Both the position numbers and the translations under genes were made by a program. Of a stretch of 64,000 nt of DNA, positions 1,852 through 9,247 are shown piece by piece. Origin of the DNA: Escherichia coli (GTDB taxonomy: Bacteria; Pseudomonadota; Gammaproteobacteria; Enterobacterales; Enterobacteriaceae). Under the pieces are notes generated by a model, which worked only from the letters and a program-made list of their open reading frames with translations, searched no databases and had not been told where the DNA came from. The stretch's first letter is position 1. The number at the start of each line of letters is the position of its first letter. The stretch lies in the NCBI RefSeq assembly GCF_003334355.1, contig NZ_QOWP01000013.1; one strand, given 5' to 3'.

Positions 1852-2256
1852 ATGGATCAGGTCGTTGTTTTTCAAAAGATGTTTGAGCAAGTGAGAAAAG
1901 AGCAAAACTTCTCCTGGTTTTATTCAGAATTAAAACATCACCGTATTGCACATTACATTTATTATCTGGCTACGGATAACATCAGAATTATTACTCACGA
2001 TGATACGGTTTTGTTATTAAGAGGAACCAGGAACCTGTTAAAAGTTAGTACGACCAAGAACCCTGCTAAAATAAAAGAGGCCGCATTGCTTCATATTTGC
2101 GGAAAATCTACATTTCGGGAATACTGTTCAACACTGGCAGGCGCGGGCGTTTTCCGGTGGGTTACTGATGTTAATCATAACAAACGCAGTTACTACGCCA
2201 TTGATAATACGCTTTTATATATTGAAGATGTAGAAAATAATAAACCATTAATCTAG
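1852..2256 (+). CDS. ycgX: DUF1398-family protein YcgX
   Basis: 134-aa ORF; length and position between bluR and iraM match the K-12 ycgX. Confidence 0.75.
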   Translation: MDQVVVFQKMFEQVRKEQNFSWFYSELKHHRIAHYIYYLATDNIRIITHDDTVLLLRGTRNLLKVSTTKNPAKIKEAALLHICGKSTFREYCSTLAGAGVFRWVTDVNHNKRSYYAIDNTLLYIEDVENNKPLI

Positions 2257-2465
2257 CTAAAGTTGGATACTTAAGAAATGCTTCATAATTCAGTAAGGCA
2301 TTAGCATAATGGAAATAAAAGTGCAGAGACTATCTCTATGGATGATTAATACTGTCTTTTTATTGTCACCCATAAATAATCACCAGACTAATACTATCAA
2401 CTTGATATTTGAAATGTGATCACTTGACTTTTGATACGTTATTTTATAACGGTTAACATATTTAT

Positions 2466-2512
2466 AAAAACAACGGCCGTGCCACACGTCCGTTTCAATA
2501 CTTAACGCACAT
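2466..2512 (-). terminator. Terminator-like hairpin (ACGGCCGTG..CACGTCCGT) with T-run on the minus strand; imperfect copy of the icd terminator
   Basis: Hairpin plus TGTTTTT on the minus strand; about 80 percent identical over 45 bp to 3333-3380. Confidence 0.45.
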
Positions 2513-2955
2513 GTATTTTGGTTTAGTCATCATCCGGTTATATGTATTTTAGCCAGGAACAGGTTAAATCATTCCTATATAACTCAAAAATTGAAACCTT
2601 ATTCTCATGTCATGCTTATATTCATTATTATCGTTATATAAAAAGGCAACCATAATGTTTAGCAAATTGGCACAAAGTAGCATAAAGGCTATGTTTTAAT
2701 TACAGGATGTTCAGTCATTTGAATGTATAACATTATAGCTAAACAAATCTAAAACGAAGTCAATAATTTATTGCTTTCACAAAATCTCATTTTGTTTAAC
2801 ATCCATTGAGATTCCTTGCTTTAAATTTTATTTTATATAAGCCATCATTTTAATTAATTTATTTTTTTGAGGGGGGGGTAATATACTCATATGCAAAATC
2901 AAGAAATAAACATCCTAATGAACCATATTAAATACCGTGGGATAAGACATAACAA

Positions 2956-3279
2956 ATGAAGTGGATAGTAATTGACACGGTAATTCAACCTACATGTGGT
3001 ATATCTTTTTCAGCCATATGGGGTAATATGAAAATGATCATCTGGTATCAATCTACTATATTTCTCCCTCCTGGCAGTATATTTACACCGGTTAAGTCTG
3101 GTATTATCCTTAAGGATAAAGAATATCCTATTACTATTTATCACATCGCACCATTCAACAAGGATTTATGGAGTTTACTCAAAAGCAGTCAAGAGTGTCC
3201 TCCAGGAGAAAGCAAAATAACAAATAAATGTTTACATAATAGTTGCATTATAAAAATATGCCCATATGGGCTCAAGTAA
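2956..3279 (+). CDS. iraM: Anti-adaptor protein IraM (YcgW), RssB inhibitor that stabilises RpoS
   Basis: 107-aa ORF ([18 protein letters not shown]...) in an AT-rich segment between ycgX and icd; matches my recollection of IraM in length and sequence. Confidence 0.75.
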
Positions 3280-3321
3280 TGGGCTTCATATAAATATGCT
3301 CGATATGCTATTAATAATATC

Positions 3322-3357
3322 CACATAAATAAAACAACGGGCGTGTTATACGCCCGT
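3322..3357 (-). terminator. icd rho-independent terminator
   Basis: Perfect 7-bp stem ACGGGCG/CGCCCGT with 7-nt loop immediately after the icd stop, followed on the minus strand by TGTTTTATTT. Confidence 0.75.
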
Positions 3358-3381
3358 TTCAATATTTAACACATGGAGAGA

Positions 3382-4632
3382 TTACATGTTTTCGATGATC
3401 GCTTCACCAAACTCTGAACATTTCAGCAGCTTAGCGCCTTCCATCAGACGTTCGAAGTCATAAGTTACGGTCTTGGCATTGATTGCGCCTTCCATACCTT
3501 TAACAATCAGGTCAGCCGCTTCAGTCCAACCCATATGGCGCAGCATCATCTCAGCGGAGAGAATAATAGAGCCAGGATTTACTTTGTCCTGACCGGCATA
3601 TTTCGGCGCAGTACCGTGGGTGGCTTCAAACAGGGCGCATTCGTCACCGATGTTTGCACCAGGGGCGATACCGATACCGCCAACCTGCGCTGCCAGGGCG
3701 TCAGAAATGTAGTCACCGTTCAGGTTCATACAGGCGATAACATCATATTCAGCCGGACGCAGCAGGATCTGTTGCAGGAATGCATCAGCAATCACGTCTT
3801 TAATGACGATCTCTTTGCCAGTGTTCGGGTTTTTAACTTTCAGCCACGGGCCACCGTCGATCAGTTCACCGCCAAACTCTTCACGCGCCAGCTGGTAGCC
3901 CCAGTCTTTAAACGCTCCTTCGGTGAACTTCATGATGTTGCCTTTGTGCACCAGAGTCACAGAGTCACGATCGTTAGCAATTGCGTATTCGATCGCTGCA
4001 CGAACCAGACGTTTGGTGCCTTCTTCCGAACACGGCTTAATACCGATACCACAATGTTCCGGGAAGCGAATTTTCTTCACCCCCATCTCTTCACGCAGGA
4101 ATTTAATCACTTTCTCGGCGTCGGCAGAGTCTGCTTTCCATTCGATACCCGCATAAATGTCTTCCGAGTTTTCACGGAAGATAACCATATCGGTCAGTTC
4201 AGGGTGTTTAACCGGGCTTGGAGTGCCCTGATAGTAACGTACCGGACGCAGGCAGATGTAGAGATCCAGTTCCTGGCGCAGGGCAACGTTCAGAGAGCGA
4301 ATACCGCCACCAACCGGAGTGGTCAGCGGACCTTTAATGGCAACGCGATATTCACGAATCAGATCAAGAGTTTCAGCAGGCAGCCAGACGTCCTGACCAT
4401 AAACCTGTGTGGATTTTTCACCGGTGTAAATTTCCATCCAGGAGATTTTACGCTCGCCTTTATAGGCTTTCTCGACTGCAGCGTCGACCACTTTCAGCAT
4501 GGCTGGGGTTACATCTACACCGATTCCATCACCTTCAATGTAAGGGATAATCGGATTTTCAGGAACGTTGAGTTTGCCGTTTTGCAGGGTGATCTTCTTG
4601 CCTTGTGCCGGAACAACTACTTTACTTTCCAT
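3382..4632 (-). CDS. icd: Isocitrate dehydrogenase (NADP), ancestral-type 3-prime end with no e14 prophage
   Basis: 416-aa [41 protein letters not shown]...; C-terminus ...[21 protein letters not shown]. Confidence 0.95.
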
Positions 4633-9230: not shown

Positions 9231-9247
9231 GGTTTATTTAATGTTTA
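9231..9247 (+). promoter_or_regulatory. PhoP box (GGTTTA-N5-TGTTTA) of the autoregulated phoPQ promoter
   Basis: Perfect direct repeat GGTTTATTTAATGTTTA about 65 bp upstream of the phoP ATG. Confidence 0.8.

Follow-up and report, generated by a model that had tools for sequence, protein, structure and literature searches.

The region upstream of iraM in Escherichia coli carries, in its K-12-type allele only, a hypervariable poly-G tract that is previously undescribed in the literature searched. This tract is a hypermutable mononucleotide repeat, judged by its long run, its one-unit steps, its length-dependent instability and a de novo change of its length. We favor the interpretation, to which we give a probability of about 0.7, that the tract is a lineage-specific slippage hotspot in the iraM 5' leader, which is tolerated and near-neutral and does not act as a switch.

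The tract was studied in a 64-kb stretch of E. coli DNA, referred to as the window. In this window, iraM (2956-3279, + strand) encodes an anti-adaptor of 107 aa that stabilizes RpoS and is identical to the K-12 IraM (WP_001295666.1). The gene of the 14-aa small protein YmgK (2655-2699, + strand; annotated in MG1655 at 1,212,260-1,212,304) is located upstream in the same intergenic island. Read from the sequence, a T7 run (2862-2868) is followed by GA (2869-2870) and by the G8 homopolymer that constitutes the hypervariable unit (2871-2878), with a T next to it at 2879, all on the + strand. These coordinates match exactly the T7-GA-G8 arrangement described in the sequence-only reading of this DNA, and the 80 bp that it gave as the distance to iraM is a fair approximation, the last G of the run being 78 nt upstream of the iraM ATG (2956). 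GA and the G's that follow form GAGG, the start of a Shine-Dalgarno (SD)-like element. The tract belongs neither to iraM nor to the candidate leader ORF described below, and the neighboring T7 run varies only slightly, from T5 to T8 among alleles.

G8 is the sole G8 or C8 of the window and its sole G/C run longer than 6, the shorter runs being 28 of length 5, four of length 6 and none of length 7. Over the whole window, this single occurrence is not above chance (1.14 expected from dinucleotide shuffles). In the AT-rich island around iraM (2200-3400, ~31% G+C), a G8 or C8 is expected 7e-4 times by composition, and 128 of 200,000 shuffles of this island contained one. Such a low probability in this composition is consistent with a shorter G run having expanded. 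The 301 bp at 2700-3000 are 100% identical to K-12 MG1655, in which the counterpart of the tract is a C8 on the reference strand (1,212,081-1,212,088).

With these 301 bp as a query, the region was found in 3,918 of 5,426 complete E. coli genomes under several allele classes, ~1,340 of the 5,426 carrying the K-12-type allele. In this allele, run lengths extend from G6 to G13 by one-base steps with otherwise identical flanks, and the alignment shows that the length classes differ in the G run alone. The classes were counted with exact queries of 88-94 nt differing solely in the number of G's. Since each band at ≥99% identity takes in ~15-20 partial alignments at 100% identity, true counts are lower by that amount than the band counts, which are 20 for G6 (3 full-length exact rows), 153 for G7 (roughly 135 genomes), 615 for G8, 281 for G9 (roughly 265 genomes), 143 for G10 (roughly 125 genomes), 76 for G11 (roughly 60 genomes, with at least 60 full-length exact rows) and 47 for G12 (roughly 25 genomes, with 25 full-length exact rows). 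G13 was found in strain L73. G8, the K-12 length, accounts for ~45% of the ~1,340 genomes, a share that is too high owing to the abundance of K-12 laboratory derivatives in RefSeq. The comparison of tract length between strains, run here on 5,426 genomes, thus establishes that the tract is clearly not invariant.

A change of length within a clonal lineage has also been reported, in a single paper of the literature. In a silver-adapted evolved population of MG1655, the mutation '+C, 1.000, intergenic (-77/+623) iraM/ycgX' was called at 1,212,080 by Illumina/breseq (PMC11510482). This position abuts the MG1655 C8 at 1,212,081-1,212,088, meaning that the reported +C is a G8 to G9 change at the tract. 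The suggestion of the sequence-only reading that the run is prone to slippage and differs in length between isolates is therefore strongly supported, both by G6 to G13 on identical flanks and by this de novo +1.

Homopolymers are miscalled in long-read assemblies, and the real tract could in principle be invariant. Several observations go in this direction: many of the G7 records come from long-read assembly of K-12 laboratory strains (NEB strains, DH5alpha), in several cases with parents that read G8, the neighboring T run differs too in assemblies cM8a and VL40, and an implausible G13...C13 inverted duplication is present in one nanopore-era assembly. Some G7 calls may thus be PacBio or other long-read under-calls. 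However, Sanger-era genomes already disagree in length, with G8 in W3110, G10 in ETEC H10407 and G11 in HS, and for HS the G11 is present in 4/4 independent assemblies. Likewise, G11 is found in all 7 assemblies of the Ec-050 series and in all 4 MRSN isolates, and clonal pairs are concordant in the G7 and G10 lists. Metagenome assemblies also display G7 to G10: among 38 metagenome contigs retrieved with a gapped pattern, those of K-12 type carry G7 (2), G8 (6), G9 (6) or G10 (1), plus one interrupted run. The +1 of the MG1655 line was called from Illumina reads at a frequency of 1.000. Finally, almost no length change was seen in the same genome collection for the G4 and G5 alleles or for an A8 run in comR, the 8-mer control for assembly errors being an A run and not a G run. 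Variation of the tract length is a real polymorphism and not assembly noise, and we hold a sequencing or assembly artefact to be extremely improbable as its explanation. The clonal sets of HS (4), Ec-050 (7) and MRSN (4) are all G11, which speaks indirectly against very fast switching between lengths.

In assembly L055 (NZ_CM148374.1, 2825092-2825331), positions 101-141 read G13-TAATATACTCAT-C13-AAATATACTCAT, so that the tract is the centre of an inverted duplication. A faulty long-read assembly of the homopolymer is the probable cause, a real palindromic rearrangement being the less likely alternative.

Alignment of 13 representative genome alleles around the tract shows that the flanks are well conserved and that the G-rich motif is the most variable spot. 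The K-12-type allele reads T7-GA-G8, while the other ones read T6-GAAGGGG (BL21/O103 type), T7-GAGGGGG (FDAARGOS_1279 type), T6-GGGGAG (PK8261) and T7-GGGAG (1532WA). In the metagenome contigs, the B1-type allele appears as T6-GAAGGGG (11 contigs, plus one with T5) and as T7-GAAGGG (3 contigs). The shorter G runs of related alleles such as GAGGGGG and GAAGGGG indicate that the long run expanded secondarily in a single allele lineage, the ancestral state being taken from divergent E. coli alleles alone. A contig scan for an outgroup of another species that would polarize this change returned a single 558-bp contig, from an Oceanospirillum assembly, with K-12-type E. coli sequence.

Length change depends on the length of the run. 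The G4 allele is exact in 1,502 of 1,923 genomes, and none of 60 evenly sampled rows showed a length change. For the G5 allele, 212 of 264 genomes are exact and an indel was seen in 1 of 9 full-length sampled rows. The A8 run of the comR coding sequence is exact in 4,871 of 5,424 genomes, with no length change in 60 sampled rows. The long run thus grew out of a short G-rich stretch, which other alleles show as GAGGGGG or GAAGGGG, and became unstable on reaching at least 7 G's, its length then changing by replication slippage. This instability explains why strains with the K-12-type region carry G6 to G13 on identical flanks.

Three minor observations concern these alleles. The Oceanospirillum contig (L014, NZ_MTSD02000045.1, O. 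linum ATCC 11336, 558 bp, coverage ~1) contains the K-12-type sequence upstream of iraM with G8, identical to K-12 over the stretch read around the tract, and is probably an E. coli contamination of that assembly. In metagenome contigs L040, L046 and L051, the B1-type sub-haplotype T7-GAAGGG goes together with an A-to-G substitution in codon 4 of iraM (ATGAAGTGGGTA, Ile4Val), so that small differences in the T and G runs can be lineage markers and need not result from recurrent slippage. Contig L047 (UMGT01008340.1) carries an intermediate allele, T7-GAA-G7, on a leader haplotype in which some sites are of K-12 type and others of B1 type; recombination could have produced this allele, as could a G-to-A mutation of the leading G in a long run.

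In PhoP-activated promoters, a direct repeat (T/G)GTTTA-N5-(T/G)GTTTA is located ~12 bp upstream of the -10 hexamer. A pattern search identified a PhoP-box-like direct repeat, TGTTTA-ACATC-CATTGA, at 2793-2809 (+ strand), with 3 mismatches that all fall in the second half-site. Its first half-site is perfect and, according to the alignment, invariant in all alleles, and the block that comes after this half-site, TTGCTTTAAATTTT(A/G)TTTTATATAA, is conserved in all alleles as well. A predicted -10 hexamer, TAAATT (2822-2827, + strand), belongs to the conserved block and lies 12 bp after the PhoP-box-like site. Together, the site and the hexamer at this distance predict a start near 2835 (2834-2837) and a leader of ~120 nt, in which the tract would probably occupy about +28 to +44 and not a promoter spacer; the PhoP-box-like element, the only conserved one with canonical geometry, lies 53-85 bp upstream of the tract. 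Bougdour and colleagues reportedly mapped the iraM promoter experimentally in 2008. Dependence of the gene on this system is documented, as iraM undergoes a ~20-fold PhoQ-dependent induction (PMC5740661) and ycgW (iraM) is expressed at 0.09 of the wild-type level in S. flexneri lacking phoPQ (PMC5775216).

Given this placement, the idea advanced in the sequence-only reading that tract length modulates the spacing or strength of the iraM promoter is not supported. T7-GA-G8 would have to separate the -35 from the -10 element, each G gained or lost then altering promoter strength in a phase-variable manner. The candidate elements for this are TTAATT (2854-2859) combined with TAATAT (2879-2884) or TATACT (2882-2887). 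These two -10-like hexamers (TATACT with 5/6 matches) begin right after the run, the short-run B1-type allele has a workable spacing (TTAATT-N18-TATACT), and phase variation by homopolymers placed in promoter spacers is well known from Neisseria, Haemophilus and Bordetella. However, no good -35/-10 pair straddles the tract, and the best straddling candidate at G8, TTAATT-N19-TAATAT, is absent from the output of the promoter scan and has a -35 that matches 3/6 positions. Spacers of 19 nt (TAATAT) or 22 nt (TATACT) at G8 become 24-27 nt at G13 and would be non-functional for most of the observed lengths, those of G10 to G13 being impossible, and a start site directed by TATACT would land within the conserved ATG at 2891. 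Moreover, the conserved PhoP-box-like site with the canonical 12-bp geometry to its -10 sits upstream of the tract. Phase variation through promoter spacing thus appears quite improbable.

A different role would be translational. An unannotated candidate leader ORF of 22 codons (2891-2959, + strand), read from the sequence, ends on the iraM start codon, its TGA overlapping the iraM ATG in an ATGA at 2956-2959. Its ATG comes 12 nt after the G run, with an SD spacing of 10-12 nt. The ORF is open and its ATG conserved in 13/13 genome alleles and in 39 contigs (38 from metagenomes and one contaminant), a comparison of low power since it covers only ~6 haplotypes. The iraM ribosome-binding site (RBS) is weak, its predicted anti-SD duplex reaching -4.0 kcal/mol, compared with -6.8 to -13.2 kcal/mol for the G-rich motif across alleles and -13.6 kcal/mol for a consensus SD. 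The G run could thus be the SD or standby site of the 2891-2959 ORF, feeding ribosomes to the weak iraM start via the ATGA, and its length would alter ribosome loading and hence the levels of IraM and RpoS, as a graded expression dial. This possibility gains from the G-rich SD-like core that is kept in every allele at a fixed 12 nt before the conserved ATG, in DNA that is otherwise >85% A+T, and from the established use of leader ORFs by other PhoP-regulated genes such as mgtA. These features hint that the leader ORF may feed ribosomes to iraM. Against tuning by length, the 3' edge of the run is fixed and the predicted pairing levels off: runs of at least G5 all give -12 to -13 kcal/mol, with no change between G7 and G13, and only the short-run alleles give -6.8 to -8.1 kcal/mol. 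The SD-ATG spacing is longer than optimal. Variable sites of the ORF are nonsynonymous in 7 cases and synonymous in 1, and 7 nonsynonymous out of 8 variable codons give no sign of selection on the leader peptide. By an estimate from composition, DNA this rich in A+T would contain an open stretch of 25 codons in roughly 10% of cases. The MG1655 annotation does not include this ORF, although the nearby ymgK and ymgL are annotated, and the literature searched yielded no paper that connects iraM with a leader ORF. Translational tuning by run length is consequently doubtful. More generally, a dial of stress-response expression in which the lengths set IraM levels, be it through ribosome loading of the leader ORF, mRNA stability or a promoter element, seems unlikely to us.

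The interpretation of the tract as a tolerated slippage hotspot accommodates these data in the following way. The tract would lie downstream of the PhoP-dependent start site, outside the coding frame and outside the promoter spacer. The ancestral G-rich motif, present in every allele, may serve as the SD-like element of the 22-codon ORF whose stop overlaps the iraM start. As the run lengthens at its 5' side, the distance to the ATG at 2891 and the predicted anti-SD pairing would not change, this pairing being predicted to saturate at about 5-7 G's. With both of them unaffected, the length variation is most likely neutral or nearly so.

Other mechanisms were considered for the tract and its surroundings. 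A mechanism based on RNA structure was rejected, the predicted folding of the leader, with weak A-U pairing only, and the accessibility of the iraM RBS (0.27) being unchanged from G4 to G12. An intrinsic terminator was discarded as no GC-rich hairpin precedes the T run, and so was a G-quadruplex given the presence of one G run only. An Rfam search of 2200-3400 returned nothing meaningful. The 'constitutive promoter' of iraM reported by Shimada 2014 (TTCATA-17-CATAAT) maps to 2282-2310, directly upstream of ymgL, ~650 bp from iraM, and is therefore irrelevant to the tract.

Two other PhoP-box-like matches were noticed. One, at 2896-2912 on the - strand (TGTTTATTTCTTGATTT, 2 mismatches), is inside the candidate leader ORF and is less conserved among alleles than the 2793-2809 site. 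The other one, at 9231-9247 (+ strand, GGTTTATTTAATGTTTA, 1 mismatch), is the best PhoP-box match of the window. By K-12 gene order, it presumably corresponds to the phoPQ promoter, in which case it constitutes a positive control for the pattern search.

The iraM tract can be compared with several known systems. With the homopolymer indel hotspots of E. coli seen in mutation-accumulation and laboratory evolution studies, it shares an uninterrupted G:C run of at least 8, single-base steps and a steep rise of instability with run length, as well as the +1 in an evolved MG1655 line. It differs from them in being documented at population scale (G6-G13 in ~1,340 genomes) and in its location, in one allele lineage, within the regulatory leader of a named stress regulator. 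A poly-G of 8-13 units, polymorphic between isolates and directly upstream of a gene, is also typical of the poly-G/C contingency loci (porA, opc and fetA of Neisseria, fim of Bordetella, intergenic poly-G of Campylobacter jejuni). However, unlike these loci, at which length switches expression, the iraM tract is predicted to be in a leader instead of a promoter spacer, precedes a gene for a cytoplasmic anti-adaptor and not for a surface structure, and is length-stable in the HS, Ec-050 and MRSN clonal series. E. coli is not known for phase variation of the poly-G contingency type. As for the candidate ORF, it resembles PhoP-regulated leader ORFs such as mgtL upstream of mgtA, and ATGA-coupled genes, in that the gene is induced by PhoP, its leader is long and AT-rich, and the short ORF in it has an SD-like element and a stop overlapping the downstream start. 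Unlike mgtL-type leader ORFs, its peptide is not conserved, it has no evident sensing codons and its SD-ATG spacing is long.

What the tract means depends on whether its length has an effect. If IraM output depended on length, E. coli would offer here one of its rare examples of a global regulator (RpoS) tuned by a simple-sequence repeat, and the tract would be a hidden source of differences in stress phenotype between strains and stocks of K-12 derivatives. An expression dial would imply that RpoS stability differs by tract length under low Mg2+, acid or osmotic stress, with heritable and rapidly mutable variation of the stress set-point in phylogroup-A-like E. coli, including common K-12 stocks. 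Even if neutral, the tract has practical value: indels are called there repeatedly when K-12 strains are resequenced and should not be over-read as adaptive, and its length offers a handy natural readout of slippage rate. The candidate leader ORF constitutes a separate lead on the translation of the weakly initiated iraM.

The locus itself shows the gene order bluF', bluR, ycgX, (ymgL, ymgK), iraM, icd (opposite strand), rluE, nudJ and mnmA, which is the K-12 arrangement minus the e14 prophage. At 3280-3381, icd adjoins iraM directly, without e14 or the icdC fragment, unlike in MG1655 and W3110, and the sequence upstream of iraM is still identical to that of K-12. A 43-nt direct repeat of the icd terminator region (2467-2509 and 3331-3373, + strand, 84% identity) brackets the AT-rich ymgK-iraM segment, suggesting that an element inserted at the 3' end of icd, where e14 also integrates, brought iraM to this locus.
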